This document shows, one piece after another, positions 2,145 through 20,000 of a stretch of DNA of 20,000 bases. The position numbers and the translations under genes are program-made. Position 1 is the stretch's first letter, and every line of letters begins with the position of its first letter. Source of the DNA: Psammoneis japonica (taxonomy: Eukaryota); NCBI GenBank assembly GCA_008632985.1, contig QPGO01000201.1, forward strand, positions 118,919-138,918, in the 5' to 3' direction. Below the pieces are notes generated by a model, which had not been told where the DNA came from, searched no databases, and saw only the letters and a list, made by a program, of their open reading frames with translations.

Positions 2145-2951
2145 CTAGTACTGCCCGGTCGGTTTCCTCATGGCCAATCTTCTCAATTCATCCACGCTGG
2201 GTATATTTCCGTCATCATCGGTTAGTCTTCCCGTCTGACGATAATCCGTGACGGCAATACCCATTTCCGAAACAGCCAGCATGGCCCGGTCTCTATCTTG
2301 CCGCTCAATGGCTTTTCCAAAGACACCGCATTGTGTTTCATAAGCTTTGCAGTCGGCCATCATTTGCTTGGCGTACGAATTGCTCATGCCAAGGCCTTGT
2401 CCGTCCAAACTCGATACGTATAGTTTCATTGGCAAAATGGCATTGTCTGCCGTCTTGTAAAATTCCGATACCCCTTCCCAATTGCCATCGTCAATCATGG
2501 GTGGAACAACTGTGATGGTGTTGCTCACTTTTTGAATCCGAGGGAGATAACGCTTTTTGGCTGTGGGATAGTAATACGCTGTTGATTGATTGGAAAAAAG
2601 ATGGATACGGCATGAGTGACTCGAAACAAATCAAGACCTTTAGATTTTTTGAATGAGAAAAGAAATGGAAAACGTACATGCTCGCAGAGTCGGGTCGATT
2701 CCTTTATCTCCTTTTTGTCCCTTGGCAATCACAACGGTGGAGGACTGGTCCTTTTGTACAATTTTGTTGGGATCCGCACCAAATTCATCCAACAAACCCG
2801 CCTGTGCTGCACTCGGAGCCGCCGCAGTAGCTGCCGCAGCAGTCGCCACGGATTGAAGGAGGCTTCGTCGGTCCATGGAGCCTGGGACCAACGCCACAGA
2901 CGAGGCCACAAACATGGATGCCACAATCGTAGAAGTCAAAACAAGTTTCAT
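2145..2951 (-). CDS. Nucleus-encoded plastid thylakoid-lumen protein of unknown function (235 aa); exons complement(2678..2951) and complement(2145..2578)
   Basis: Signal peptide MKLVLTSTIVASMFVASSVA, then twin-Arg DRRSLL, an Ala-rich h-region and an AQA cleavage site (Tat lumen signal). A 99-nt GTACG...CAG intron (2579-2677) joins in frame: ...PTLRAS-YYYPTAKKRYLPRIQKV... Confidence 0.75.
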
Positions 2952-3295
2952 GGCTTTGCGCTCTTCTTCTTTTAAGTTGAAATGGAGATGAACAAAAGGA
3001 TTTGTGACATCCAATGCTCGCAGATGTTCTGTCGACAACGCACCACGTCGATTGCATTGGCCGCTTGCGTTTTCTTCTGCTGTTATTGTTTTGTGAGAAA
3101 GGTGAGGGGTGACGTGGCTCCATCCGACCGCGCGAGATCGCGCATGCCACAGACGACGGCTCTGAATGGAGGAGTGGATGCATGGACAGACCGTGTTGGA
3201 GGGAGTTTCTGAATTTTCGAAAATTGTTCGGAAGCCACCAGCCACTCAACATGACGTTGAAGGCTCACAAATAATATAATGGCTGACATGGATAC

Positions 3296-3526
3296 AGTCA
3301 CGACTCAACGTCATTCTGGTCGCATCTCACGACTGCAACCCAGACTCAGATTTTCTCTTCGAAACAATTGGCTCATCACAAAATCGATTCAAACAGAAGC
3401 AACGACATTCGTCATAATTTCTAGACAACGACTTTCAACAAGCGTCTGTTTACCTCTGTCGCTGTTCACATTGCTGCCAACCTCCGAGGTCTTGCCCATC
3501 CCACTCAGCTGCAGGGCTGCATCTCG
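3296..3526 (+). repeat. 5' LTR
   Basis: Direct repeat of 10293-10523 at offset 6997. By-eye alignment gives 11 mismatches, all transitions, and no indels. Confidence 0.93.
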
Positions 3527-3528
3527 AC

Positions 3529-3542
3529 TGGTTGCAGAGCCC
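3529..3542 (+). promoter_or_regulatory. Primer-binding site, resembling the complement of the initiator tRNA-Met 3' end
   Basis: TGGTTGCAGAGCCC lies 2 nt after the LTR. It has one mismatch to the iMet-type PBS TGGTAGCAGAG. Confidence 0.7.
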
Positions 3543-3691
3543 AATTTGTGCGTTGACGAGAGCTCCTGACCGAGTCATCGTCACGGACGCTTTCGGTTTT
3601 TGATTTTGAAGCAAACCCGGGAAATAGCTGAGTCTCTCTCGCTTCTCTCGTCTTCACTCTAACAAGAACCTCCCATGCTGCACTCTCTGTC

Positions 3692-6187
3692 ATGGCTGCC
3701 ATCGATCCAGATGTTCTGGCGAAGGCGTTTGCCGATGCAATGGCCGCCAACGCCGCGGCGACCGCTCCTCCGGCTCCAACCAAGCCGTTACGTGGTGGAA
3801 TTCACCCAACCCACGGGGTTTACATTGGTGGTTCCAAACTCAACAACAACTGCGAACAATCCAATGATAGAACCTGCCGGCTCGCCTCTCAGCGCCGTCA
3901 TCCCAAGGCTCTCGACTCGATAGAACGATCTCTCCGCGATCAACAAGCTTCCGCAATGACTTCCAAGTTCAACGGTCGACTTGAGATTTCAGATGGTCCC
4001 ATCAACGAGCTTGACAAGGACCATTTCGTCAAGACTGTTCGAGATCTGGTGGAAGCCCACGGTCAGCAGACGTTCTGCCATGTCAAGGACAGCGACGACA
4101 AGGTTCAATGTGTCTTCGACCATCTTCACGAGTTTACTGTGACCGATCTCGTGAACGAGTGCACGGTTGGGAAAGCAGCTGCCGATGATGCCAAGTACGA
4201 CGAGATCAAGCTCGACGACATCGGGCTCTCTCAACTTCTCGTTCACTCAAGAATCACCAATGCCTTTCGCGAGAAAATCGAGACCAAGTTCAACCATCTT
4301 TCGGACTGCCAAGACTGCCCTGGATCTGTTCCATTCATGATGGCTCTCGATGCTTGCAATGCTGGTGCTCTGACGGATGTTGAGACGGCTGAGAAGCAGC
4401 TAGAAGACCTCAGTTTGGTTGACTGTCCCAGCGAGGATTGCACGGACTTTGCTGCCGAAGCTCTTCGCATCGTGAAAATCATGCAGACCGACTGCGCGCT
4501 TCCGGCGAACACAAGCTCCAAGCTGCTCCACAAGATCTCCTCTGCGTCCTCTGAGTGCTTCAATCGCCGAGTCTACAACAAGCTCAACGACGTCAAGGCC
4601 ATGGAACGCAAGCACCGCCTCAAGAATCCTGCTGACATCGTGTCCGACAGCGATCACAGAACGCTCGGACCGGTCGGCATCATTGCGTGGATTCAAGAGC
4701 AACACAACGAACTCGTGAAGGACAGGGAATGGCCTGCATTGGCAGCCAAGCTACCCGAGAGTAATCTTTCGACTACGGATGACCCTGTGAAGACGAAGCA
4801 CTGTCATGGTTGCGGTCTCGAGGGGCACACCAAGAAGACGTGTCCGAAGTGCAACGCCAAACCGCCGCGCGACGATCCTCCTCCCAATCCGCCGCCTGCA
4901 GACGACCCTTCCAGGAAGAAGAGGCGACCCATCGCTGCCTGGCGCACTAAATTTGACGGAGAAACGAAGAAGGATAAGAATGGCAAGGAATGGAAGTGGT
5001 GTGCCACGTGCAAGGCGAAGGGTGCCGACAAACCTGGAATCTGCCAGAAGCACTCTACCGCGGAACATGCCGACGACCGCAGGCAACCTCCCAAGGAGAC
5101 CCCAGCAGGGAATTTGTCTTCCGTTGCTGATCCGGACAGTGGCGTGCCCATGGGTCCGCCCGCTCAGACTACCAAGGAACCAGAGGGAGACGAATCCGAC
5201 CCCAACGAGTTGGTTTTCACGGGAATGTGGTGCGCGGCTACGGATCCCGTTGCCGACCCGGATTTCTGTTCCGCCCCTGTCACTGCTGCAATTATTGTCA
5301 CTCCGGCTTCCGAGAGGGAGAGCGACACAGTCGTTAGCACTGAGGTGGTTTGCATCGAAACGAGCCCACCTGTGCTCACCTCAGTCGTGGATCCAGTCGT
5401 GTCTCCCATCGTGGTTGAGACTGTCACTCCCGAAGACGCCGATGACTTCTGCGAATGCTCCGACGCTTTCTCTACCTTTGAAAACGAACCACCGGCTATT
5501 GAGTTGTTTCCGGCCTCGAAGCTGTGCTCTGTCGAGCATCCGGATGAGTTCTTTGACGCTCCCGCACATTTGACGGATGTGCTGTCAGACGACACCAAGT
5601 TAGATCTCATCCTTGAACACGACGTACACTTTGAAGACGCATGCTACGACTTGCCTCCGTGTGTTACGTATCGTGGCTTCGATTTCTACGATCCAGAGGT
5701 CCTGGATGCGGATGATTGTCACGAGGACGTCGAAGACGAGCCCACTTCGCGTCGCTCACTCTTGGGTCGAGTCAAGCCATTCATACTCTGGCTCGCCGCC
5801 ATGTTTTGGGAAACGGCACTGCATCTTTGCTTTGCTCCGATCCCATGTATCCCTCGAGCTCTACGCCGCCAGCGCAAACTCCCAACTTTGCACGGGTTTC
5901 CAGCCTCCTGGATGGTCCTGTCCGTTGCAGTGATGGCATGGTCAGCAGTTTACGCCGGTCAACAGCCCGAGTGTCCATTCTCGAACGTGCCAAGTCGTTT
6001 TTCGACCGCCAGCTCTCAAGTCTACCACATTGTGGAAGAGCTAGATGACCGGATAGTGTCAGATACGGGGTCACTGTTCGAATGTCACAGGATCAAAGGC
6101 ACGCAAGTGCTCACCGAGTTTGTCGCGCGCCATCCGTCACACGCACTGAGCACTCGTCTCAAGGCCTGCTGGGAGAGCCAGAAGTAG
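3692..6187 (+). pseudogene. gag: Retrotransposon Gag with zinc knuckles plus a long acidic/hydrophobic linker
   Basis: CX2CX4HX4C knuckle CHGCGLEGHTKKTC (4802-4843) and a second WKWCxxC...H....H motif. It is the first long ORF after the PBS and is strikingly Cys/His-rich and Tyr-poor. Confidence 0.8.
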
Positions 6188-7476
6188 CTGAACGGTCTGA
6201 TGCGATAGACGAATCAGCCTTCTTTGACACCCATGAGGAACTGGAACCTCTCGACGACCAGAAGCATTTCTTTGACGCTCTTGAGGACTTCAGCCCGGAT
6301 TTCTTCCGGTTTGACGAGCTCTGTCTGCCGCATCACATCGTGGACACTGCCCATTTTCAAGATCCTGTGGAACTGTTGGAGGAAGCAAGTGTTAGACCAG
6401 TCGTCTATGACACCTCCACCATCCAACTGCTCACCGGACAATCACAAGCCGACCTCCTTGCATCCGATCCGCAGGCACTCATCGGTCTGTCGGACGAGGC
6501 TCTCACGGTCGTCATGGACACTGGTGCCACGTTAGCCATCACCCCCGATGAAGATGATTTTACGGGGCCTGTGACTGTTCCCAAGAAACCCTTGCAGATC
6601 AATGGGATTGCCAACGGTCTTGCCATCCAGGGTGCCGGTCCGGTTGCGTGGGTGTTCACAACGCCGAGTGGGGCTGCCATCCAACTGAACACCATGGCAT
6701 GCTACGTCCCTGGAGCCCGTCAGCGCCTGCCATCGCCTCAACGCCTCTTCAACGAAGAGAAGGGGGTACGTGGGAAGTGTGAGGGCGATGAAACCACTTT
6801 CCGTTTACAAATTGACGGGATGGGCAAGTTGGTCGTGCCATGTCATCCATCAAGCCACTCACCCATTGCGTCGATGACCAAGGGCGCATCTGCCGCTCCT
6901 CAAGTGAACCTTCAGATCCTTATCGAGGAGAATCAAAACCTCACGGCAGGCCAAAAGCTTCTTCTCGAAATGCACGCCCGTTTTGGCCATTTGAACTTTG
7001 GTCGCGTCCAAGCACTTCTCCGCGCAGTTCCGTTCCTTTCGAACCGTTTCAAGTCCGCAGCGAAGTGTGACCACCCAAGATGCGAGGCATGCGAACATGC
7101 TAAAGGTCACAGACGCTCTCTTGGATCTACTCACAAGTCGACAGTCCCTGAACGCGACGGGGCCCTTCGAGCTGACCATCTTCGACCGGGTCAGGCTGTC
7201 AGCGTTGATCATTTTGAGTCGCGCCTTTTAGGCCGCACCTTCGACTCTTGTGGCAAAGCCACGTCCAAGCAATTCAAGGGCGGTTGTGTCTTTGTCGACC
7301 ACGCCTCTGGCTATGTCCAGGTCGAGCACCAACTGGGTTTCTCCGCTGTTGAGACGATGCGCGCGAAGCAAGCGTTTGAGAAACATGCTTTGGACCACGG
7401 GGTCATCGTCCAAGAATTTCTTACCGACAGTGGCGCTTTCAAGGCCAACGCTTTTGCACAACATGCGAGAACATGA
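6082..7476 (+). pseudogene. pol: Pol part 1: aspartic protease, integrase zinc finger and start of the integrase core
   Basis: Protease VVMDTGATLAIT; HHCC finger HARFGH...CEAC; core VSVDHF, FVDHASG and LTDSGAF. Frame changes near 7460-7476. Confidence 0.88.
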
Positions 7477-9780
7477 ACAACGTCTCCGTTTTTGTGGAAC
7501 CAACGCCCATCATCAGAACGGCGTCGCAGAGCAGGGCATCCGCGGCATCTCCAACATGGCGAGAGCGATGTTGCTTCATGCATCAATCCACTGGAAGGGG
7601 GGAATTGACAGCTCCCTGTGGCCCATGGCAGTTTCTTGTGCCACGCACATCTACAATGTCACCCCAAATTCCAAAGGACATTGCCCAGCGGACATTTTCA
7701 CCGGTTCGACAGTGCCAAGACATCGGTTGCGCGACATTCACACATGGGGATGTCCAGCGCACGCACTTGACCCGACCCTCGCTTCCGGGAAGAAGCTCCC
7801 GCGTTGGGAGCCTCGCACTCGTCGCGCTTTGTTCGTGGGACTCAGTGCCATCCATTCCAGTGAGGTTCCTTTGGTCCTCAATCTTCAAACTGGAAGTGTC
7901 GCACCTCAGTGTCATGTGGTCTTTGACGATCTCTTCACTGCCGCACCATCAATCGAGAGGGAGACGGATCCACCTGATCACTGGGAACACTTGTGCCTCA
8001 ACCAATCGACATGCATCCCTCTGGAGAAGGATCAGGCAGTTCATTTACACGATGAGTGGCTTGCCCCTCCAGAGCGTCAACGTAAAGAACGAGAACTAGC
8101 CAGAGCAACACGCATTCGCGGGCATTTTGAGCCTGCTCCATCGATTGCTGTGCCGGATTCACCCACTTCTCGCGACGACGTCACCGATCGAGTCGCACCT
8201 GCGACTCAGCAGCCAACGCCACCAGTCCCACCTGCGACTCAAACTCCTGCAGACTCTACGGACTCTACGCCAATTCAGCCACCTGAACCTCAAGACAGCA
8301 ACGGACTTCCGCCACCCGAAGCGCCGACGGAACCAACAGCTCCTCCCCCAGTCGAGACACCTCCCATGACGAATCCAGAGGGAGCACCAGGGCTGCGACG
8401 GTCTTCACGGTCAACCAAGGGACAGTTCAACTCCACCAAGTTTGTAGATGAGGTCTGCTTCAGCTCCGTCGAGGAAATGCCGCTGCCGATCGGACACGAG
8501 GCTCAACTGGCGTATCTGGCGACTCTCGAGACGGATTTGGACAGTGGCGCCATCAATGTCGGCGATCCACGAGCCTGCGCAGCTAGTGAGAAAACCAAGG
8601 ACCCTGACATGCCTTCATTGCACAATGCTCTGAAAGGTCCGGACGCCGACGAATGGATTGAGGCGATGAAAATTGAAGTCAACGCACTCACACATCGTCG
8701 AGCCTGGAAAGCAGTCGAGCGTCAGCCGCGTGTGAATGTACTTCCAGGCACATGGGCACTAAAGCTCAAGAGACTCCCAGATGGAACCCCTCTCAAGCAC
8801 AAGGCCCGATGCTGCGTCCGCGGTGATTTGCAGAAAGAAGGAGTCGACTGCTTCGAAACCCATGCGCCGGTTGTGCAATGGTCCAGCACCCGACTCATGC
8901 TCACTGCGGCATTAAAGGAGGGATGGACTGCACGACAGGTGGACTGCACCACAGCCTTTTGCCAAGCTGACATCGCCGAGGAAGTTCACACAACACCGCC
9001 GAAGGGATTTGCGCCAAGGTCGGGACTCAATGTGGTTCTCAAACTTTTGAAAGGACTACACGGCCTAAAACAGTCTCCCAAGGGCTTCTACGAGAAGTCA
9101 CGAGCTGGTTTAACCGAGCGCGGATGGGTGCCTTCAGCCACAGATCCCTGTTTGTATTTCAAAGAGGGCATGATGTGTGTGGTGCACGTCGACGACACCG
9201 TTTTTGCTGGAGCTTCAGCTGAAGCTCTAGAAGCCGAAATTCGCAAGTTAGGAGTCTCCGACGACGAACATCGCCACGCATTTGAACTTAGAGACGAAGG
9301 AGAAGTCGGCAACTTTCTCGGTGTCAAGATCGAAAAGCTCTCCGAGGGTCGATTTCTACTCACTCAACCCGGTCTAATTGACAAGGTCCTGCACACCGCA
9401 CAGATGCAGGATTGCAATGGAGCATCTGCTCCAGCTCTACCTGCGGCTGTTGGTGCCGACACGGACGGCCTGCCTTTTGATGAACCCTGCGATTGTCGCT
9501 CAGTTGTTGGAATGTTGATGCACTTGGCAGCGAACAGCCGGCCAGACATTGCACATGCCACACATCAAGTGGCTCGATTCTCGTTTGCACCCCGAGCGTC
9601 CCACGCTGCTGCAGTGAAGCGGATGCTCCGATGCCTCAAAGCAACTGCTGCTGAAGGTCTCATTCTCAAGCCTGCGCAAGATCATCGAGTTGATTGTTGC
9701 GTCGATTCTGACTTCGCGGGGTTGTTTGGTGTGGAAGATGGTCAAGACCCAGTTTCTGTCAAGTCCAGGACTGGATCCTG
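7460..9780 (+). pseudogene. pol: Pol part 2: integrase C-terminal core and reverse transcriptase
   Basis: AHHQNGVAE (catalytic E), WGCP, PQxHVVFDD; RT motifs KAR.CVRGD.Q, QVD...AF, LHGLKQSP, DPCL, HVDD (for YVDD, 9185-9196) and SRPDIA; start of RNase H DSDFAG. Confidence 0.9.
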
Positions 9781-10271
9781 TCTGCTGCGCCGGCTGCCCG
9801 CTTGTCTGGGTGTCCAAGCTGCAGACTCTTGCAGCATTGTCGACTGTGGAAGCGGAATGTGTCGCACTTTCTCAAGCCATGCGCGATCTCATCCCCATTC
9901 GTGAAGTTCTCAAGGAGCTCAACCACCACGCACTCGGAAAGTCTGACCGCCAAAACCCTATCACGACTCACTCCAAGGCTTTTGAGCTCGCAACCCAAGG
10001 CACCGATGACTCGCCTGTAGAGCAGAATGTCCTGCCTGCGTCCGTTGTGTACGAAGATAACTCCGCGTGCCTCAAGTTCGCATGCATGCCCAAGTTGTCT
10101 CCGCGAACCAAACACATCGGTATCCCGCACCACTGGTTTAGGACTAAAGTCGAACAATTGGAGATCGACATCCAACCTGTCAGCACTCTAGAGCAACTGG
10201 CCGATCAGTTCACGAAGGGACTGCGGACCGATGCGTTCCGTGCGGCTAGAAAGGCTCTCATGGGCTGGTGA
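9770..10271 (+). pseudogene. pol: Pol part 3: copia-type RNase H
   Basis: GCPLVWVSKLQT, LSTVEAE, VYEDNSAC, RTKHI, QLADQFTKGL, ending ...LMGW-stop. Confidence 0.9.
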
Positions 10272-10283
10272 GCTCTCTCGGTT

Positions 10284-10292
10284 GAGAGGGAG
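10284..10292 (+). promoter_or_regulatory. Polypurine tract (plus-strand primer)
   Basis: GAGAGGGAG immediately before the 3' LTR. Confidence 0.85.
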
Positions 10293-10523
10293 AGTCACGA
10301 CTCAACGTCATTCTGGTCGCATCTCACGACTGCAACCCAGACTCAGATTTTCTCTTCGAAACAATTAGCTCATCACAAAATCGATTCAAACAGAAGCAAC
10401 GACATTCGTCACAATTTCTAGACAACGACTTTCAACAAGCGTCTGTTTGCCTCTGTCGCTGTTCACATTGCTGCCAACCTCCGAGGTCTCATCCATCCTG
10501 CTCAGCTGTGGGACTGCATCTCG
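10293..10523 (+). repeat. 3' LTR
   Basis: Direct repeat of 3296-3526. Homology ends after ...GCATCTCG. Confidence 0.93.
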
Positions 10524-11153
10524 TCCAATGCGAAGCTCGCCTTGGCGGCAGAAAAGGTGGCGGTCGGGTTGGGAGCACAAACCAAGTGCATCAATCTTGG
10601 ATCTCACGAGCTGCCCCTCTACAATCAAGATGACGAGGCGGACAAGGGGATGCCATCCAACGCTGTGAAACTCAAGGAGGAGTTGTCATCAGCAGATGGA
10701 TGGATCATTGCTGGTCCCGAGCACAACGGATCCATTGTGCCCCTTGTTGTCAACGCATTTACGTGGTGCAGCCGTGGCGACCCAGAAGGATCGCCCATGT
10801 GCGCCACATTTCATGGAAAGTCTGCAACAGTTCTCAGTGCGTCTCCTGGCGCCATGGGAGGCATGAGGTCGTTGAATCCTCATCGTCAGTTGTTGCAAAA
10901 CTTGGGAGTGAACGTGTTGCCCGCATCGGTTGCTGCAGGAGGCGCCTTCAATGCCTTTGATGACACTGGAGCCTTGACGGATTCACGGCACAAATCCATG
11001 CTTGAGGCCGCAGTCAGTGATCTTTGTTGCCAAACGAGAGACAAAGCGAACCGCGAAGCAACGTGTGATTTAATCCGTGCCAGCACGGTGGGAGAGTGCG
11101 GAAATGTCGACGTGGCTCAACAGTGGTTTTTGCCAATGCAAGCATCACAGTAG
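10524..11153 (+). pseudogene. NADPH-dependent FMN reductase (flavodoxin-like, ChrR/SsuE family), 5'-truncated by the LTR and hypermutated
   Basis: SNAKLA, LPLYNQD, ADGWIIAGPEHNGS (family P-E-Y-N), and SASPGAMGGMRS. The N-terminal GSxR phosphate-binding loop and a start ATG are missing at the LTR junction. Confidence 0.85.
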
Positions 11154-11229
11154 ATTCAATGTTGAATCATCATCCTGCCGATGGACGGGTTCACACACAA
11201 CTGCATTTTCGACGCAACGAAGAGCACCA

Positions 11230-11249
11230 CTCTCTCTCTCTCTCTCTCT
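11230..11249 (+). repeat. (CT)10 microsatellite
   Basis: Direct reading. Confidence 0.9.
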
Positions 11250-11802
11250 GTCAAGCGTGTTTGATCTCTCGAATTTTTCGGCTCTTACCCACCAATGAGG
11301 AGGGGGAAACGCGTCTCGCACAAGCAACATTGTGATCCCAGGAAGAAAGCTGAGAGTCACAGCTGCTGTCAGGGTCTCTGGAACTTCGATGAGTTGGATC
11401 CGCGACAACTGCCGCAACAGAGGAACACCGGCAAGAGAGTGGAAAATCTGTCTGTGTGCACAATTTCCATCCGAGGCAATTGCGACTAATTTTTTTGAAA
11501 TTTCAACACAATGTCAATGAATGCATGTCTGCAACAATGCGTCATCGGCGGTGACGACAGAAGCTCGAGCGATGTGCGTGCGATGTTGTGATGACGATCC
11601 TCATTCCTCATCATGGCACTGTTTGTGTCGGCGTGCCACGCAATGCAAACAACCCACGCCACAACCATCAACAGACATTGCCATGCGGGATCACACCCTG
11701 GCATGTGTCCTTCAGCCTGAAGCCTTCAGTGCGTTGCCGACGCCGACTGCCCATTGATTTGCCCACTCTTGGGCGTTCGTTGGGGGCTCTCTGACAGATG
11801 CA

Positions 11803-14038
11803 ATGGTGATGATTGCGCGGCTGATGGTTGTCGCCTTTGTTTGCGTTAAAGCAATTCTTGGCTCCAAATGCAGCGGTTGCGAAGATCGTCAGGCATGAAA
11901 CGCATTCTCTGCTTTGGAAGAAGTTGCGGTGCAAGGGCGTTTCGCAATGCATGAGTTCTTTTTTTGTCACGCAAGTGAAGATCACTGCAAGGGTTCGTCC
12001 ACTTTCCAATTTCGCACATGCCTCACATTCTCCACCTCTCCCGCTTCCAACACAGCAAAGGCATTGCTCCAAGAACTGTCGACAACTTGGACACGGCAAG
12101 AAGAAGGGTGTTAAAAAAGGAAAGTTTACGAATGTAGCGAGGAAACGAGGGAAAAGGAGTGAAACGCCATCCGCAGCCCCCTCGAGTTCTCCAAGCGGCA
12201 AGCCATCCCAAGAACCGTCCAGTGTGCCATCCAGGTCACCCAGTTCTGCTCCAAGTGGTGCTCCCAGCATTTCTCCAAGTAAGAGCCCGTCGGCAGCACC
12301 CTCTAGCATGCCCAGTGAATCGCCTTCCGAATCGCCTTCCGAATCGCCAAGCGCCACACCGAGTGATTCTCCGAGTGAAACCCCGTCAGACATTCCTTCA
12401 AACATGCCAAGCGCATCGCCGTCCCAAAAACCAAGCAATGCCCCGAGTGGCGCTCCCAGCAGCGCTCCAAGCGACGCCCCGTCGGATGCACCTTCGAAAA
12501 TACCGAGTAGATCGCCAAGCTGTGCGCCGAGTAGAACTCCAAGTGAAACTCCGTCGGATGCACCTTCAAACATGCCGAGCAAATCGCCGTCCCAAACACC
12601 AAGCAATGCGCCAAGTAGTGTGCCAAGTAAACGCCCAAGTGAAACACCATCGGAATTTCCTTCAGGCATGCCGAGCACATCGCCGTCCCAAAAACCAAGC
12701 ATTCTCCCAAGCAGTGCTCCCAGTGGCGCTCCAAGTGAAACCCCGTCGAACGTGCCTTCAAACATTCCGAGTGCGTCACCGTCCCAAATGCCAAGTGATG
12801 CCCCAAGCAGTGCTCCCAGTGAGTTTCCGAGTGAAAATCCATTGGAGTTACCTTCCAGCGTGCCGAGTAGATTGCCAAGCTCTGTTCCCAGCACTGCTCC
12901 AAGTGGAACCCCATCGGATGCACATGCCATCAAAACAAGTTCATCGCCGTCCGAAACACCAAACAGCTCCCCAACGCCGCCTTCTTCACCGGCAGGTCCC
13001 ACAGTTCCTTCGACTCCACCATCAGATGCTCCTTCATCAGGCCCGGTGGCTGGCCCAACACCTCCTCCATCGAGTTCGCCATCCGGTGCACCATCATCAG
13101 GCCCGGTGGCTGGCCCCACACCCCCTCCAACAGCGACACCATCGGATGCTCCTTCATCAGGCCCGGTGGCTGGCCCAACACCTCCTCCATCGAGTTCGCC
13201 ATCCAGTGCACCATCATCAGGCCCGGTGGCTGGCCCGACATCCCCTCCAACAGCGACACCATCGGATGCTCCTTCATCAGGCCCGGTGGCTGGCCCCACA
13301 CCTCCTCCATCGAGTTCGCCATCCGGTGCACCATCATCAGGCCCGGTGGCTAGTCCCACACCCCCTCCAACAGCGACACCATCGGATGCTCCTTCATCAG
13401 GCCCGGTGGCTGGCCCCACACCTCCTCCATCGAGTTCGCCATCCGGTGCACCATCATCAGGCCCGGTGGCTAGTCCCACACCCCCTCCAACAGCGACACC
13501 ATCGGATGCTCCTTCATCAGGCCCGGTGGCTGGCCCAACACCTCCTCCATCGAGTTCGCCATCCAGTGCACCATCATCAGGCCCGGTGGCTAGTCCCACA
13601 CCCCCTCCCACAGCGACACCATCGGATGCGCCTTCATCAGGCCCGGTGGCTGGCCCCACACCTCCTCCATCGAGTTCACCATCTGGTGCACCATCATCAG
13701 GCCCGGTGGCTAGTCCCACAGCGACACCATCGGACACCCCTTCATCAGGCCCGGTGGCTGGCCCCACACCTCCTCCATCGAGTTCGCCATCCGGTGCACC
13801 ATCATCAGGCCCGGTGGCTGGCCCCACACCTCCTCCATCGACTTCACCATCCTCTGGTCCAACAGAGCCATCAACAGCACCTGACAGTGTTCCGTCAACA
13901 TCTCCACCCGGCTCTCCGTCCTCGGGTCCTGCAGCTCCGTCAATGGGCCCCGCAGCACCGACGTTTCCAACAGTCTCGGGTCCGACAGCTCCGTCAGCAC
14001 CCGCACCCCCACCGACTCAAATCTTCCGTAGAAAGTGA
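11803..14038 (+). CDS. Secreted Pro/Ser/Thr-rich mucin/extensin-like protein with RXL site and Lys-rich patch; 5' exon uncertain and possibly pseudogenised
   Basis: Continuous frame 12056-14038: RQL-GHGKKKGVKKGK, then PSxxPS repeats and 40-aa repeats. A signal-peptide-like MVMIARLMVVAFVCVKAILG starts at 11803, with a putative intron 11971-12055 and an in-frame TGA at 11896. Confidence 0.65.
12160..12920 (+). repeat. Degenerate 12-nt (PSxx) coding repeat with four higher-order PSETPS...SPSQ blocks
   Basis: Translation shows PSETPSDIPSNMPSASPSQ, PSETPSDAPSNMPSKSPSQ, PSETPSEFPSGMPSTSPSQ and PSETPSNVPSNIPSASPSQ. Confidence 0.85.
13021..13840 (+). repeat. Near-perfect coding tandem array, 120-nt unit built of two related 60-nt halves (~7 units)
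   Basis: CATCAGGCCCGGTGGCT recurs every 60 nt. Units start at 13021, 13141, 13261, 13381, 13501 and 13621, with one 12-nt deletion near 13720. Confidence 0.95.
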
Positions 14039-14186
14039 TTGTGAAGCCCGTGTGCGTTGTATCTTGAACGACACTGCGCACTTCAGCAATTCAGCGTCTT
14101 TGCAATACCTAAATCTTCCGTAGGTGAGGCTGCGTGCGTTGTACCTTAGACGGTACTGCGCACTTAAACAATTCATCGTCTTTGCA
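14019..14186 (+). repeat. Degenerate direct repeat (14019-14104 and 14111-14186) overlapping the stop codon and 3' UTR
   Basis: Both copies read AAATCTTCCGTAG...GTGCGTTGTA...ACTGCGCACTT...CAATTCA.CGTCTTTGCA. Confidence 0.8.
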
Positions 14187-14286
14187 CGGCATTGGAAATG
14201 GGTGGGGAAACAATAGAAAATGATCGGTGACTGAGAAGTACAGCAGTGCACTAAACAGAAACGACTAGGCGTATAAAACATGTTTA

Positions 14287-15363
14287 TTATTTCTTCGTAG
14301 GAGGTGTGTATTCCCTCTCAGGGTTCTCTCTTTCAGTTCAGGGTCAAGCTTCCAGGCGTTGCTCTCAACACCGTTCATATTGTATACAAAGTGCTCCATT
14401 CTACGAAATGCGCCTGTTTGATCAAGACGTCATTGCACGCCCCGCTGACAATGCAATAGTTCCCATCGTAGGGTGCCTTGTGGTGCAATGCATGAGGTTT
14501 CCGTCCAATTATAACGCCCGCGTCTTGAAGCCAATTTACCCATTGCGGCACCTCACTCTTGTCATGTGCGACCACTTGTGAAATNTCCTGAGAAAGAATT
14601 TCCAGAGAGCAAAACACGGCCAAGAAGAAAGTAACTGTTGGTCCGCTAAGAAAAGAAATGAGAGCCATTGTGGGTACGCCGAAGGGGACGCACAGTTTGT
14701 ACACGTTATTGCAAAACTCGCGTTCTGTAATTGTCCATGGAGCCGAGTGATGACCTTGAAATGCAGCAATGATATTTCCCATGATTGGAGTACGGCCATT
14801 GCCGTAGTTGTCGACCGACCAATGCAACACACCCGAGCCAAAATCTGCAAGCAACCAACTTGATACGGCAAGCGCTAATGCCTGAGTGCTTGTCGTTGCC
14901 AGGTCGCCACCATTGCTTGAGTACAATTCCTGCAATGCAGCTGCAGCTATGGCCCCGTTTCCCAAGAATGTTCCAAGCACCATGGCAACTTGATAAGGTT
15001 GTGTCTCCAGCGTGTCTCCCTCGACGACAACTGAAGCTACCTTTCCCTTTGGCCGTTCGATACCAGATCCCTCTAATCCAAAAACGAATCCATCGTCAAG
15101 ATACGTTTTCGATTGTGTCTCGGGAACTGATACATCTTGTTCTGACATGACGCTTACAGCATTCAGTGATGTAGAGGACTGGGAGTTTAGAGCCTTCGCG
15201 TTGCTATTCAATCTTGGCTCGTTGGCATTCATTGAAAGGCGACTCTTGCTTGTGATTCGCTTCGATGATGAAAAGCTGACTCGTCGTTGTGTGGAAGCTG
15301 TAAACTTTCGACATTACATGAAAGCAACAGCAATACGGAGCAAGCGAGAGAAGGAATCTTCAT
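14287..15363 (-). CDS. FAD4: Plastid fatty-acid desaturase 4-like (delta3-trans; TMEM189/Kua domain); several apparent 1-nt assembly frameshifts
   Basis: ADFGSGVLHWSVDNYG, FQGHH, FHKWSH, HALHHKAPYDGNYCIVSG. Signal peptide MKIPSLACSVLLLLSCNVES is followed after a shift by FTASTQRRVSF, a transit peptide. The C-terminus FRRMEHFVYNMNGVESNAWKLD is in a shifted frame. Confidence 0.85.
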
Positions 15364-16377
15364 GGTTCTTGAATGAGGTGTGGAGTAGTGAGTGAAGGGA
15401 AGAAAAAATGAAACGCGTTGCAAGAAAGACCTCACAAAGAATTTATGTGTAAATATGCTTCCAAAACAAAATGAACAAGAGTGAATATCACCACGTGTGA
15501 ATGAAGTGGTGTGAACGTAGTGGCGAGTACAAAACATCATCGACCGCAAAACAACAAAGAAATGTGAGTCATCCGCATCAACTCGAAATTTGAAAACGAC
15601 GTGGCGAATTCCATAAGTAATTTGCCTTCGGATTACGTCATTCACGCTGAGATGTATTCAAAAACATATGTTCATAAGGATTTATAATAAAGCCACGTGT
15701 GTCCGTCACTGGCGACACGCCGAAGCAAAGCTTGCTACTGCCCTCACAAATTCGCGGCACTCCGCACGAGCCAAAAAAAATGATGGGACGCTGTGGAATG
15801 AACTTGCCGAAAAGATCAAGATGATGAAACGAAACGATAGGTGCACGTGTGTCGATGATGTAGGTCTCCAATGCAGGAGGTGACATCATGTGATTCACTC
15901 GCTTCCTATCATGCTTTGAAGCGGGCTGAAACCCTTCATTGCTTTACAGGGGTATTTTGAGAGAGCTTGTTCGAACTTCGGTTCTGTGCGGCATGGATTA
16001 AACTATTCGGTTTTCTGCGAGCGAACTGTGTAAAGACAAATATTAATAACTTATACGAAAACGATCAACCTACTATATGATGCAGCTAGCATAAGTTAAT
16101 CCAGCGCTCGTCACCAAACCAGTTGTTGTATTCTAACAAACCAAATTGCAGTAGCAAGATTGAATAGTAATAAAACGACATGATATTCACTATTCTAAGG
16201 CTCGAAACAGTGATTGTAAACATGTACAATGCTAAATAAGTTACTGGGAATACTGAAAGACACAACAAATCTACTTTTTCTCGTTCATCACGACGCTTCG
16301 ACTTGACGAACCGTGTGGAACGATGAATTGTGTACAATCCCAACTAGGATACCTGGAATGGAACGCGCTCCACTCGT

Positions 16378-17265
16378 TTAGATGTTTTCCTTGTCCAAGT
16401 CGTCAAAGTATGGGTGGTTCAACGAGTCCTTGGCCGTGATGCGCTCGTTGGGGTTGTACGCGAGGAACTTCTCCAACAAGGCGAGCCCAAGGCTATCCAG
16501 ATTGTCTGTTACCGATGGAGAAAACTGTGACTTGTACCAACGAGGAAAGGCAGAGTTCCAATCCGGTAGCTGCGTGACACCGGGCCAGACTTGTTCGTTA
16601 GGCGTGCCGAGCTGACGAAAGATTTTGTAGAGCTGATCAATTTCTGAATCACCAGGGAACAGAGCACGCTTGGTGACCATTTCGACAAAGATGGTGCCGA
16701 GAGCCCACACGTCAGCGGGTGGAGCATAAGTCTGTGATCCAAGAAGAATTTCAGGAGGGCGATACCACAACGTAACCACCTCGTGGGTAAGCGGACGGAT
16801 CGGCGGGCAGAAAGCACGAGCCAGTCCAAAATCAGCCAGCTTCAACCTTCCATCCCTGGAAACGAGCAGATTCTGCGGTTTGAGATCCCGATGCATGACA
16901 CCGCGTGCGTGACAAAAGGCGAGACCCCGGCAGCACTGGAACAGGTACGACTTGACGAGAATGGCTGAAGCTGATCATTGCAAGACTCCATGTACTTTTT
17001 CAAATCACGGTCGAGAAACTCAAACACGAGGTACAGCTTTCCGTCAGATTGCACGCAATCCTTAAGCTCGACGATATTCTCGTGGCTAAGCTCTCTCAAG
17101 AGACTAATTTCACGCAAGCCGTCGGCGGANATCTTCCACTTCGAGTCGGATCCTCTTGAGAGCAACAATCTCATCCGTCTGACGATCGCGGGCTTTGTAC
17201 ACGACGCCATAAGTACCCTCGCCGAGGTTAGAACCGGGCTTTTCAATCTTCTGATACCTGTACAT
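16378..17265 (-). CDS. CDKA: Cyclin-dependent kinase, CDK1/CDKA type (probably PSTALRE/CDKA2-like); frameshifts near an N
   Basis: RYQKIEK...[68 protein letters not shown] and HPYF. The cyclin-binding helix is corrupted at N 17130 but reads T-A-L-R-E when one base is restored. Confidence 0.93.
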
Positions 17266-17414
17266 GCCGAGAGTCGATAGAAGTTAGAGGGGTTGTGAAT
17301 AGAGAGTTGTTTTTGCCATTGGCTTGTCCGCTGATATTGCAAAAAATTGGGAAACGGATAGGGCAGGCTAGCTACAGGCTTCTCAGTACATTTCTACGGC
17401 GAACGTTATTTTCA

Positions 17415-17430
17415 TTCAAATTCCCGCGAA
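17415..17430 (-). promoter_or_regulatory. Candidate E2F site plus CHR-like element upstream of the CDK
   Basis: Minus strand reads TTCGCGGGAATTTGAA about 150 nt upstream of the ATG. Motif match only. Confidence 0.4.
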
Positions 17431-17965
17431 CACCAAACGGGATTTTTACACGTCCGTGAAAGACATACCGAGCTCTACGATGAGCCTTTGGACAATGCTG
17501 TCAGAGACTCCGTCGTCTCGTTCTGCCCCGTTATCTCACCAAAAAACAGCACAACAACCAAAGTCTCGTAAATTAGACAATAGCACATCCGATTCGATGG
17601 TGCTTACCTTTCCATCGTGAAGGCTTGGGTCTTGAAAACGAACGACAACAACACAACAAATTGTTGACGCTGTTGATGTGCAAAGAGTGAAAATGGCGGT
17701 GCCGACAATCTCGGCGCGTCTGTACGTATGTAGAATCGTACAGGTTCAGTAACACAACGGAATCTCCTTTGTATTCTACCTGCATTATAGATATGTAGGT
17801 CTACAGGTTTTTATTCTCATGAATATTTAAGGATATTAAAGTCTTTATATGATTAATGCCATCTAAGATCCCCGGCTCATTTTTTCGCTCCCGATGCGAA
17901 GCAACTTCAACAACAGCCACACAGAACCAACCGATCGGCTTATTGAATCAATCTCTGATGAAGAA

Positions 17966-20000
17966 ATGATACGCCAAGGATGCAGACTGTCGACGAGAGC
18001 TATCGGTAGCGGGAAATGGACAGTTGGACCGTCATGTTGTTTGAGCCTTCAAAAATCAGAGACATGGCTACAACAACAAGAACGTAGGTGCTGTGCGATA
18101 TTCCCGTCAAGAAAATCACCTGCCACAAGGCTGTTTCAACGTAATTCAGTTGCACCAAGAGGAGGTCTTTTCTCAATTGATGGGTTACACAAGCCATCCG
18201 ACTTTGTGGCTCTGGCAACAGATGCTAAATCGGTATGTGACGGGCTGCGTTCCTCCTTGACGAGTTTGGAGGCCATTACGTCTAAAGAACACGCGTCTGA
18301 AACTTTAAAGAGACTGGACAATGTCAGCAAGACTGTATGCAATGTCATTGATGCGGCCGAATTATGTCGATCCGTCCATTCTTCTGTAGCATGGCGGGAA
18401 GCGTCGTCCAAGGCTTTTGCAATCATGAGTGATTACATTGCATTGTTAAACTCCGACACACATTTGTACCGTGCGTTATCCATGGTTACAAATTCGGATT
18501 ACTTTCCCCAGTTATCTCAAGAAGAGCAACGATTTGCAATTCTACTAAAGGCGGAATTTGAACGTGATGGAATACACTTGCCGGATGAAGAACGAAACAA
18601 AGTACGAACATTGCAAAACCATGTAACTCAATTGGAAACGCTCTTTACCGACAACATTACGCATTCAAGAAAATACTTTGATGTGGACGCTGCATGGGTT
18701 GAAGAAATTATACCGCGGCACATTTTGGAAGCGCACGTTCCACAATCAAACAAGGANNNNNNNNNNNNNNNNNNNNNNNNNNNNNNNNNNNNNNNNNNNN
18801 NNNNNNNNNNNNNNNNNNNNNNNNNNNNNNNNNNNNNNNNNNNNNNNNNNNNNNNNNNNNNNNNNNNNNNNNNNNNNNNNNNNNNNNNNNNNNNNNNNNN
18901 NNNNNNNNNNNNNNNNNNNNNNNNNNNNNNNNNNNNNNNNNNNNNNNNNNNNNNNNNNNNNNNNNNNNNNNNNNNNNNNNNNNNNNNNNNNNNNNNNNNN
19001 NNNNNNNNNNNNNNNNNNNNNNNNNNNNNNNNNNNNNNNNNNNNNNNNNNNNNNNNNNNNNNNNNNNNNNNNNNNNNNNNNNNNNNNNNNNNNNNNNNNN
19101 NNNNNNNNNNNNNNNNNNNNNNNNNNNNNNNNNNNNNNNNNNNNNNNNNNNNNNNNNNNNNNNNNNNNNNNNNNNNNNNNNNNNNNNNNNNNNNNNNNNN
19201 NNNNNNNNNNNNNNNNNNNNNNNNNTTGTTTGGAATATCAATGAAAGATAGTATGGACGATGAGGAGAAAATGGGATGTCGGAGATGATGGCAGTCATCT
19301 TGGTGTAAGGTTCGCAAGTTTGTCTTTCATGACGAGAACCGTCGACCGTTGGGTACAATGTATTTGGATCTTCACCCACGAGAAGGCAAGTACGGGCACG
19401 CAGCACACTTTACTGTTCGATGTGGCTGCGTTATTGGAGGAGGACCGAGTGAGCGACGCGGAGATGAGGAGTACCAGCTACCTATTGTTGCTCTTGTATG
19501 CAACATGTCGTCTCTCATCAAGCTCAATTCTAAGTCATTCTGAGGTCGAAAACTGTTCCATGAGTTTGGCCATGCATTACATTCCCTGCTGTCACGGACA
19601 ACCTTCCAGCACCTATCTGGCATCGTGGTGCCATGGACTTTGTCGAAACGCCATCGCACCTGTTCGAACAATACGCATGGGACCCAACGTTTCTCAAGGT
19701 TTTTGCAAGACACCATCACAGTGGTGAGCCAATACCGGACGACTTGATACACAAATTGGTTCAATCTAGGAACGAGTTTCGTTCCATTGATATACAAAAT
19801 CAAATTATTGTATGCACTTTTCGACAGACCATATTTGGAATACCGGACCTTCCAGCCAAGTACTACGCAAGTTCTTTGCAAAGTATCACAAGATCTTTGG
19901 TGTCCCATACGCGGAAGGCACTCACTGGCATTCACGCTTTGGGCATTTGGTCACGTATGGTGCTGGACTTATGGATATCTCTATGCTCAGGTGTTTGCAG
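17966..20000 (+). CDS. MIPEP: Mitochondrial intermediate peptidase (M3A metallopeptidase, MIP/Oct1); gapped, frameshifted in assembly, continues beyond window
   Basis: Arg/Ser-rich presequence MIRQGCRLSTRA; LDNVSKTVCNVIDAAE; EFERDGIHL; GTMYLDLHPREGKYGHAAHFTVRCG; zinc motif HEFGH (19559-19573); DFVETPSHLFE; HSRFGHLVTYGAG. Confidence 0.92.
18757..19225. other. Assembly gap (N run)
   Basis: Direct reading. Confidence 1.

Follow-up and report, generated by a model that had tools for sequence, protein, structure and literature searches.

The DNA analysed here, a single stretch of 20,000 nucleotides referred to as the window, includes a Ty1/copia retrotransposon, now dead, that extends from 3296 to about 10527 and has both of its long terminal repeats (LTRs); the features discussed below are collected in Table 1. 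A repeat search combined with MAFFT alignment identified one pair of direct repeats (3296-3526 and 10293-10523), each 231 nt in length, offset by 6997 and 95% identical. Self-BLAST detected no further repeats of the LTR-pair kind in the 20,000-nt window, and the possibility that a second copy lies upstream of the 5' LTR, in tandem or nested, was dropped, as self-BLAST returned the LTR pair only. Contigs that derive from other copies in a sequencing run diverge from the element at 3296 and 3530, so that the LTR of the family probably reaches 3530. Beyond the aligned repeat, a script-based comparison showed that three of the last four bases differ between the two LTRs (3527 A/T, 3529-30 TG/CA).

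The element exhibits two of the features by which Ty1/copia retrotransposons are recognized, namely an RVT_2 domain located downstream of the integrase and direct LTRs accompanied by a PBS-like stretch and a polypurine tract. We take the TGG-led stretch that follows the 5' LTR to resemble the tRNA-iMet PBS of copia. A Pfam search identified RVT_2 with E=1.4e-33, preceded by gag_pre-integrs and SH3_retrovirus, and the pol region is interrupted by two frameshifts. The top protein matches are diatom copia polyproteins, including those of Fragilaria crotonensis and Nitzschia inconspicua, with up to 54% identity; by homology, these matches indicate a genome similar to that of a pennate diatom.

The element belongs to a large family, given that word depth sums to about 13,000 on the LTR compared with 57 on the unique left flank, which corresponds to a roughly 200-fold repeat. 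Searches of metagenomes with LTR patterns gave 0 matches. No exact 5-bp target-site duplication was found when 12 x 16 combinations of boundaries were compared; at most, 3 of 5 positions were identical. Because a target-site duplication is lacking, the flanks are not contiguous and the end of the 3' LTR is mismatched, origin of the two LTRs in the same insertion is an assumption of what follows; one deletion at the right-hand junction would account at once for the absent duplication, the clipped 3' LTR end and the truncated gene next to it.

Table 1. Coordinates of the element, of its variable LTR sites and of the neighbouring genes in the window. Site entries compare the 5' LTR (LTR5) with the 3' LTR; family depth refers to contigs from other copies.
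Feature	Position	Strand	Remarks
TA-depleted domain, approximate	2751-14000	.	TA o/e 0.0-0.4
5' LTR	3296-3530	+	repeat aligned to 3526; family boundary ~3530
One-sided site	3369-3370		TG in LTR5, TA at 10366-67; A at 3370 in 30% of family depth
One-sided site	3415-3416		TA in LTR5, CA at 10412-13; TA probably ancestral
One-sided site	3451-3452		TA in LTR5, TG at 10448-49; G at 3452 in 50% of family depth
Reciprocal site A	3493-3494		TG in LTR5, CA at 10490-91; another copy (X2 contig) has TA
Non-TpA transition	3495		C private to LTR5; T in 99.6% of family depth, hence T>C
Reciprocal site B	3502-3503		CA in LTR5, TG at 10499-500; another copy (X2 contig) has TA
Reciprocal site C	3512-3513		CA in LTR5, TG at 10509-10; X2 contig and family majority have CA
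Non-TpA transition	3516		G private to LTR5; A in 98% of family depth, hence A>G
PBS-like TGG-led stretch	3529-3540	+	directly 3' of the 5' LTR; read from sequence
gag-side ORF, 831 aa	3692-6187	+	no match in Pfam search
pol (pre-integrase/integrase SH3/RVT_2)	6268-10266	+	three frames: 6268-7471, 7433-9791, 9774-10266
Polypurine tract, 11 purines	10284-10294	+	abuts the 3' LTR; read from sequence
3' LTR	10293-10523	+	last 4 bases (10524-10527) unlike the 5' LTR end
NADPH-dependent FMN reductase gene fragment, host	10521-11153	+	adjoins the 3' LTR; without ~30 N-terminal codons
Lipid desaturase gene, control	14283-15355	-	just beyond the TA-poor domain; conserved Tyr kept 3/3

Differences between the two LTRs

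Comparison of the LTRs by script yielded 11 differences, given here as the base in the 5' LTR followed by that in the 3' LTR: 3370 G/A, 3415 T/C, 3452 A/G, 3493 T/C, 3494 G/A, 3495 C/T, 3502 C/T, 3503 A/G, 3512 C/T, 3513 A/G and 3516 G/A. All 11 are transitions (P=0.012 at a 2:1 transition:transversion ratio), exactly as an earlier note on this DNA had reported, and the dinucleotide readings of that note, with TA against TG or CA at three sites and TG against CA at three others, match the script's listing. The former sites are termed one-sided and the latter reciprocal. Toggles between TA and TG or CA make up 9 of the 11 observed differences, compared with 45 of the 231 single transitions that are possible (P=1.5e-5).

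The differences are unevenly placed. They include four adjacent pairs (P=5e-4 for random sites), and eight of the 11 fall within the last 34 nt of the LTR (P=2e-5 under uniform placement). Of the inferred TA sites, hits affected 3 of 8 in the first (5') two thirds of the LTRs and 12 of 12 in the last (3') third (P=0.004). In addition, both LTRs share TG at 3463-64, CA at 3469-70 and TG at 3475-76, positions at which other copies have TA. These three sites are candidates for double hits on the same strand; if they are such, there would be three same-strand and three opposite-strand double hits, as expected for hits that are blind to strand.

Base composition of the element and its surroundings

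The element is strongly depleted of TA, with an o/e of 0.24 (88 TAs in 7228 nt) compared with 0.50 and 0.62 in the flanks further out. For CpG the o/e is 0.96, which indicates no depletion, and CpA and TpG together have an o/e of 1.25. Correspondingly, TAA and TAG triplets, counted in six frames, occur at 14.2 per kb in the element versus 33.6 and 37.2 outside it, which is 2.4-2.6 times lower, whereas TGA is unchanged (39.1 versus 40.4 and 40.2). TAs in CTA and TAG contexts are largely spared in the element.

The TA-poor domain is wider than the element, although its limits are approximate. To the right of about 12300 lies a P/S/T-rich tandem repeat, which may be TA-poor by composition, so that the extent of the mutated domain on this side is established to about 12300; in a Pfam search, the matches of the ORFs at 11668-14123 were all either weak or of repeat type. 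On the left, four TAs persist at 3272-3294, immediately beside the 5' LTR, and their survival suggests that the left flank has not been visibly hit. The ORF at 2640-3245 on the minus strand of this flank gave no homolog at E<=1e-5 and no Pfam match.

Direction of mutation at conserved protein positions

The changes in pol were polarised by tblastn with 120 copia homologs, using the columns in which at least 20 homologs were present with at least 70% agreement (n=391). Tyr was conserved in 15 columns and was kept in none of them, having been replaced by His (CAY) in seven, by Cys (TGY) in six and by Phe in two. One of the lost residues, at which the element reads L-H-G-L-K-Q, is Tyr in 104 of 105 homologs. 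Conserved His, by comparison, was kept in 12 of 13 columns (the other being Phe), conserved Cys in all 8 and conserved Arg in 27 of 28 (the other being Gln). The asymmetry between changes from Tyr to His or Cys and changes in the opposite direction is pronounced (Fisher P=4.5e-8).

Altogether, 54 columns had changed. TpA>TpG accounted for 12-13 of these and TpA>CpA for 11, and other AT>GC transitions were seen in four; RIP-type changes from CpA or TpG to TpA numbered 0, as did other GC>AT transitions, and a single CpG>CpA change occurred at a conserved Arg. Transversions (15) and multi-step changes (10) were also present. Single-step transitions at conserved pol columns thus comprise 27-28 of AT>GC and one of GC>AT. 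TpA-type changes constitute 23-24 of the 27-28 AT>GC transitions, with a strand split of approximately 12:11 (12-13 to TpG, 11 to CpA). These column classes indicate that the process runs from TA to TG or CA and does so equally on both strands.

Damage to an adjoining host gene

Diatom proteins, from Cylindrotheca closterium and Seminavis robusta, are among the FMN reductase homologs of the gene fragment that adjoins the 3' LTR, and the closest matches of the fragment are 64-66% identical. The N-terminus of the gene was looked for in the left flank and was not found there. We examined 103 conserved columns of this protein against 66 homologs. Five columns contain conserved Tyr, of which one is kept, two have become His (CAC) and two Cys (TGC), the altered codons being located at 10605, 10722, 10800 and 11097; at one of these positions Tyr is present in every one of 63 homologs (63/63). 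The TA o/e of the fragment is 0.08.

The lipid desaturase gene served as a control, with 150 homologs and 72 conserved columns, and the loss of Tyr in the domain differs from that in the control (Fisher P=0.002). The TA-poor domain is local, in that TA o/e is low from about 2750 to 14000 and the desaturase retains its conserved Tyr, yet the adjoining host gene fragment has been hit. Tyr>His/Cys damage to host DNA outside the LTRs, together with the near-equal use of the two strands in pol, argues for action on chromosomal DNA and not for editing of RNA or cDNA. The earlier note's placing of the process on chromosomal DNA is thereby supported, since the FMN reductase gene has lost four of its five conserved Tyr and the desaturase gene has kept three of three.

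Ancestral state of the reciprocal sites

Other copies of the element were sought in three sequencing runs of the same sample (X1, X2 and X3), whose contigs were aligned to 3000-4200 at 80% likeness; 479, 1 and 0 contigs aligned, respectively. X1 is a DNA run in which 58% of the words sampled from 3000-10800 occur, and it may be the data behind the assembly, hence not independent of the assembly. X2 and X3 contain hardly any of the stretch; this should not be taken to mean that it is absent. The outgroup states reported here rest on short contigs rather than full copies, and on the best 40 of 216 variants in X1.

The single X2 contig covers 3446-3530 and then enters other sequence. It differs from the 5' LTR at 3464, 3476, 3494, 3495, 3502 and 3516, each time by G>A or C>T, so that it reads TA at site A, TA at site B and CA at site C. 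In X1, A at 3494 (site A) occurs in 18 contigs and T at 3502 (site B) in 12. Neither C at 3493 nor G at 3503 is among the best 40 of the 216 X1 variants, and the same holds for T at 3512 and G at 3513 and for any supported family variant at 3415. From this we infer that the variant states at 3415, 3493, 3503, 3512 and 3513 are probably rare, the weakest variant among those 40 having a depth of 517 and 3 contigs. A well-supported CG state at the reciprocal sites is likewise absent from these 40. At the three sites where three states occur (3463-64, 4047-48 and 4160-61), the G>A share is never below the T>C share, which identifies the third state as TA and not CG.

The site classes within the LTR pair lead in the same direction. 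Under TA ancestry, there is one site at which both LTRs have TA (within CTAG at 3421-24) in addition to the three one-sided and three reciprocal sites. The model fits with a per-copy hit probability of p=0.74, for which 0.65, 3.7 and 2.65 sites are expected, and this value agrees with the loss seen in pol. The outgroup copy shows TA to be ancestral at sites A and B, and TA ancestry at site C is favoured by the rates.

The earlier note had proposed that TA was ancestral at the reciprocal sites and was hit on opposite strands, a proposal that gains support from the conserved proteins, the CpG o/e, the site classes and the X2 contig. Its suggested check against other LTR copies came out as anticipated at sites A and B, which have TA, and otherwise at site C, which has CA; the CG pattern that it had named as contrary evidence was not found in the contigs aligned. 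The frequencies within the family are lopsided, with TG at 73% and TA at 27% of depth at site A, and CA at 56% and TA at 44% at site B. Independent hits would give TG and CA at 1:1, so that the mutated states have probably been inherited in part by subfamilies.

Systematic A>G miscalling was considered as a source of the private bases of the 5' LTR and appears unlikely, as these bases are found at single-copy depth (59 at 3495 versus 57 in the unique flank), a depth taken from exact-word contigs of X1, which may be the assembly's own data.

Alternative origins of the LTR differences

CpG decay classically yields a reciprocal pair of TG and CA, and such a pair is two steps away from CG, as many as from TA. 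The pairs could accordingly descend from ancestral CpGs hit on opposite strands, either by deamination of 5mC or by a RIP-like process that prefers CpG, and changes of this type do occur in the element: four sites in 3531-4200 (3549, 3865, 3991 and 3994) have TG or CA here and CG in 84-97% of family depth, and the CpG>CpA change in pol affects a conserved Arg. These amount to at most 4 of 56 CpGs in 3531-4200, too infrequent a change to account for three double hits within the LTR. If CG were ancestral, there would be 16 candidate CpGs in the LTR, of which 13 are intact in both copies, three are reciprocal and none is one-sided; that six hits should fall as three complete pairs has P=6e-4, and the configuration as a whole has P=1.9e-5 at the best-fitting rate. 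The expected depletion of CpG is absent, one-sided CpG losses number 0 of the 16 candidate LTR sites, and among the changed pol columns one of 54 is of CpG type versus 23-24 of TpA type. Sites A and B, moreover, read TA instead of CG in the X2 copy, and the 40 X1 variants considered included neither C at 3493 nor G at 3503. The caveat of the earlier note, that TG/CA pairs could derive from CG by 5mC deamination, is thus disfavoured; a CpG origin is close to refuted at sites A and B, and we regard it as very improbable overall. An initial reading of the DNA as a fungal genome subject to RIP or 5mC decay, with CG ancestral, had been dropped on the grounds of composition, protein polarisation and the diatom matches.

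It is also conceivable that the two LTRs have different origins, through recombination between two family members or through an assembly join, and that their differences are partly inherited subfamily variants. Consistent with this are the lack of a target-site duplication at every boundary tested, the flanks that do not continue into one another (the first ~30 codons of the FMN reductase gene being missing from the left flank), the divergent last 4 bases of the 3' LTR, the large size of the family and the fact that four of the 11 differing sites (3370, 3452, 3494 and 3502) are common polymorphisms of the family, at 27-50% of depth. The LTRs agree, however, at six other well-supported polymorphic sites (3436, 3460, 3463-64, 3469, 3476 and 3505), a coincidence with a probability of about 0.055 if two copies are drawn at random, and a deletion at the right junction accounts for the junction anomalies. 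We judge separate origins to be improbable, and even if they were true, the direction and TpA specificity would stand and the damage in the host flank would still signify chromosomal action. Changes made before integration, by A-to-I RNA editing of the ADAR type on double-stranded RNA or by deamination of the cDNA while it is being reverse-transcribed, in the manner of APOBEC on retroviruses, are in our estimation the least probable origin, scarcely to be credited. If editing took place in the course of reverse transcription, it might leave the two LTRs unequal. The 5' U preference of ADAR would match the TpA context, according to the portions drawn on of a recent preprint (Mettrop et al., bioRxiv 10.64898/2026.01.13.699255). 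Against this origin, editing of a single strand would produce one type of change only, and 12 TpA>TpG stand beside 11 TpA>CpA; the FMN reductase gene, which lies outside the LTR-bounded sequence, is equally damaged; and a copy in which 15 of 15 conserved pol Tyr were lost could not support its own transposition.

A probable TpA-directed process and its closest parallels

We are fairly confident that the LTRs record hypermutation of chromosomal DNA from TpA to TpG or CpA, occurring after integration, symmetric with respect to strand and affecting both the element and the host DNA adjoining it. The data demonstrate the direction of change, its TpA specificity, its strand symmetry and the fact that host DNA was damaged as well, and they indicate that the changes are limited to a local domain. 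The sequence of events would be as follows. After integration, A:T would have been rewritten to G:C almost only at TpA, in the chromosomal copy of the element and in the host DNA for 0.6 kb or more beyond its right end, a hit on the A of the top strand yielding TpG and a hit on the A of the bottom strand yielding CpA. About three quarters of the TA steps would have been converted in each LTR independently. A hit in one LTR would leave TA opposed to TG or CA, hits in both LTRs on opposite strands would leave TG opposed to CA, and hits in both on the same strand would be invisible. The chemistry may be that suggested for Bigelowiella natans, in which a targeted deaminase converts adenine in DNA to inosine, and the domain might be selected through repeat, chromatin or small-RNA guidance.

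The signature observed here is the same as the TpA hypermutation of B. natans, which is the closest known case. In that chlorarachniophyte, mutation-accumulation lines revealed A>G/T>C hypermutation at TpA only, in integrated DNA of giant viruses and virophages, at a de novo rate that exceeds the genomic baseline about 1000-fold; RT domains are enriched among TpA-depleted CDS, and an ADAT2-like adenine deaminase is proposed by its authors as the likely agent, in the portions drawn on here (Mettrop et al., bioRxiv 10.64898/2026.01.13.699255). Two features of this type were found in the present element, namely the near-exclusive occurrence of AT>GC transitions and their location at TpA steps. 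The likeness extends to nearly exclusive A>G/T>C change restricted to TpA, with TpG or CpA according to strand, and to long-term depletion of TpA with a gain in CpA and TpG. In B. natans the changes are local to foreign DNA; the domain here is local too, but takes in a host gene fragment next to the element. The two cases differ in host, since ours appears to be a diatom-like stramenopile, and in target, which here is an LTR retrotransposon together with adjoining host DNA. Hits are also near saturation here, at about 75% of TAs per LTR and 13 of 15 conserved Tyr. Sparing of CTA and TAG, seen in the present element, is not described in the portions of the preprint drawn on, and the CpA+TpG o/e of the element (1.25) is lower than the per-window cut-off of 1.52 given there for B. 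natans. Finally, the rate in B. natans comes from mutation-accumulation lines, whereas the process here is known from its historical footprint alone.

More distant parallels can be drawn. RIP, in ascomycete fungi, converts C to T, chiefly CpA to TpA, and thereby enriches TA and stop codons. Like the process described here, it is a dinucleotide-specific transition hypermutation of repeated or mobile chromosomal DNA that acts on both strands, can leak into adjoining DNA and inflates apparent age. Its chemistry and direction are nevertheless opposite, given that RIP-type changes number 0 of 54 here, TA is depleted and TAA/TAG stops have been erased. CpG decay in methylated transposons likewise generates TG/CA pairs and LTR divergence by transitions only; unlike such transposons, the present element has a CpG o/e near unity (0.96) and its 13 remaining LTR CpGs are all (13/13) intact in both copies. 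Editing by APOBEC or ADAR is also a deaminase-type hypermutation of retroelements with a preference for the neighbouring base, but it affects one strand before integration, in contrast to the involvement here of both strands and of host flank DNA. The comparison with RIP has been drawn as well for B. natans, in the portions of that study drawn on (Mettrop et al., bioRxiv 10.64898/2026.01.13.699255). A full-text literature search found no report of a TpA hypermutation signature in diatoms; the SPLASH preprint, considered as a possible diatom report, was set aside, as 'hypermutation' refers only to antibodies in the portions of it that were drawn on.

Consequences for dating and annotation

If the reading of these LTRs as a record of TpA hypermutation is correct, TpA-directed A>G hypermutation is not confined to one chlorarachniophyte and extends to retrotransposons of diatoms, a major group of phytoplankton. 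The LTR pair adds to what a scan of composition can provide, because its two copies would have started alike and been hit independently, and it yields a per-site probability of about 0.74 together with the use of each strand. The element and its flank also offer a defined substrate and a context rule, the sparing of CTA and TAG, for a search for the enzyme.

We hold evenly balanced a broader proposal, according to which diatoms would possess a chromosomal mutator for genome defence that deaminates adenine at TpA on both strands. Its action would be seeded by a retrotransposon, would spread from there to one side for hundreds to thousands of bases into host genes, would largely spare CTA and TAG and would erase Tyr codons as well as TAA and TAG. 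Such an activity would be either common to the SAR lineages, and hence shared with Rhizaria, or convergent. Under this proposal, erasure of Tyr would kill proteins while erasure of stops would leave dead elements with long open frames, and both LTR dating and ORF-based annotation would be systematically distorted in genomes of this kind.

If the TpA reading holds, the long ORFs of such elements are artefacts that arise from the erasure of TAA and TAG stops. As the earlier note had anticipated, dating by LTR divergence is inflated as well: the raw divergence of 11/231 (4.8%) falls to 2/231 (0.9%) without the TA-type sites, so that ages of the element obtained from LTR divergence would be too high by about five-fold or more. 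Both of the non-TA-type LTR changes that are left after this masking are also AT>GC.

Reciprocal alternatives among other copies of the element

For the element, a dead Ty1/copia retrotransposon, we used the summed depth of contigs from other copies of the family, aligned over 3000-4200. Among these copies, TG and CA occur as linked alternatives at 3533-34, 4036-37 and 4109-10, where T>C and G>A are equal in both depth and contig counts, and no TG-CA intermediate is supported at any of these three sites in the family copies. These alternatives are the reciprocity of the LTR pair, repeated across copies. At 3549, 3865, 3991 and 3994 the element copy reads TG or CA where 84-97% of the family depth is CG, a difference that reflects either some CpG-type change in the element copy or a distinction between subfamilies.

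Context and distribution of the changes

Surviving TAs in the element (3296-10526) are richer in CTA/TAG contexts than TAs outside it (57 of 88 versus 107 of 307 in 1-2500 and 14001-18700 combined; P=7e-7), and none of the 88 lies in an ATAT context. The only TA retained by both LTRs is held by the CTAG at 3421-24. Together, these observations suggest that the mutator, the process proposed to turn TpA into TpG or CpA on either strand of chromosomal DNA, obeys a context rule. Where the ancestral LTR dinucleotide is read as TA, 3/8 sites were hit in the 5' two thirds and 12/12 in the 3' third, counting both LTRs (3296-3530 and 10293-10523). Both LTRs thus show an internal gradient of hits that rises toward the 3' third.

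TAA and TAG stops are approximately 2.5 times rarer in 3296-10526 and 11668-14123 than outside these intervals, and the frequency of TGA is unchanged. Overlapping long ORFs occur there on both strands and in multiple frames, and are no evidence of genes.

Selected open reading frames in the window
Feature	Coordinates	Strand
831-aa ORF, gag position	3692-6187	
Long overlapping ORF (example)	4806-5573	
Long overlapping ORF (example)	7473-8099	
Long overlapping ORF (example)	11668-13827	(-)
Long overlapping ORF (example)	11828-14038	(+)

Flanks and right junction

The left flank looks untouched, because four TAs in ATA contexts persist at 3272-3294, no more than 25 nt from the 5' LTR, whereas the right flank is hit. 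Either the mutator spread asymmetrically or the junction formed later. The right junction has likely been altered by deletion or rearrangement: the host NADPH-dependent FMN reductase gene (10521-11153) begins at its own codon ~31, directly at the end of the 3' LTR, and its 5' part was not found in the left flank (3200-3295). The last 4 bases of the 3' LTR do not match the 5' LTR, and no target-site duplication was found around the element.

Other features of the window

The window contains 471 Ns, comprising single Ns at 14585 and 17130 and a run of 469 at 18757-19225; composition figures for 18000-20000, which includes this run, are unreliable. Coding tandem repeats at 12317-13852 are P/S/T-rich and match the PT repeat; their periods are 96 and 60/120 nt, and their TA scarcity is possibly due to composition alone. 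At 831 aa, the ORF in the gag position exceeds the usual length of a copia gag by an uncommon margin, and a Pfam search with a threshold as loose as E 0.1 gave no match to it.
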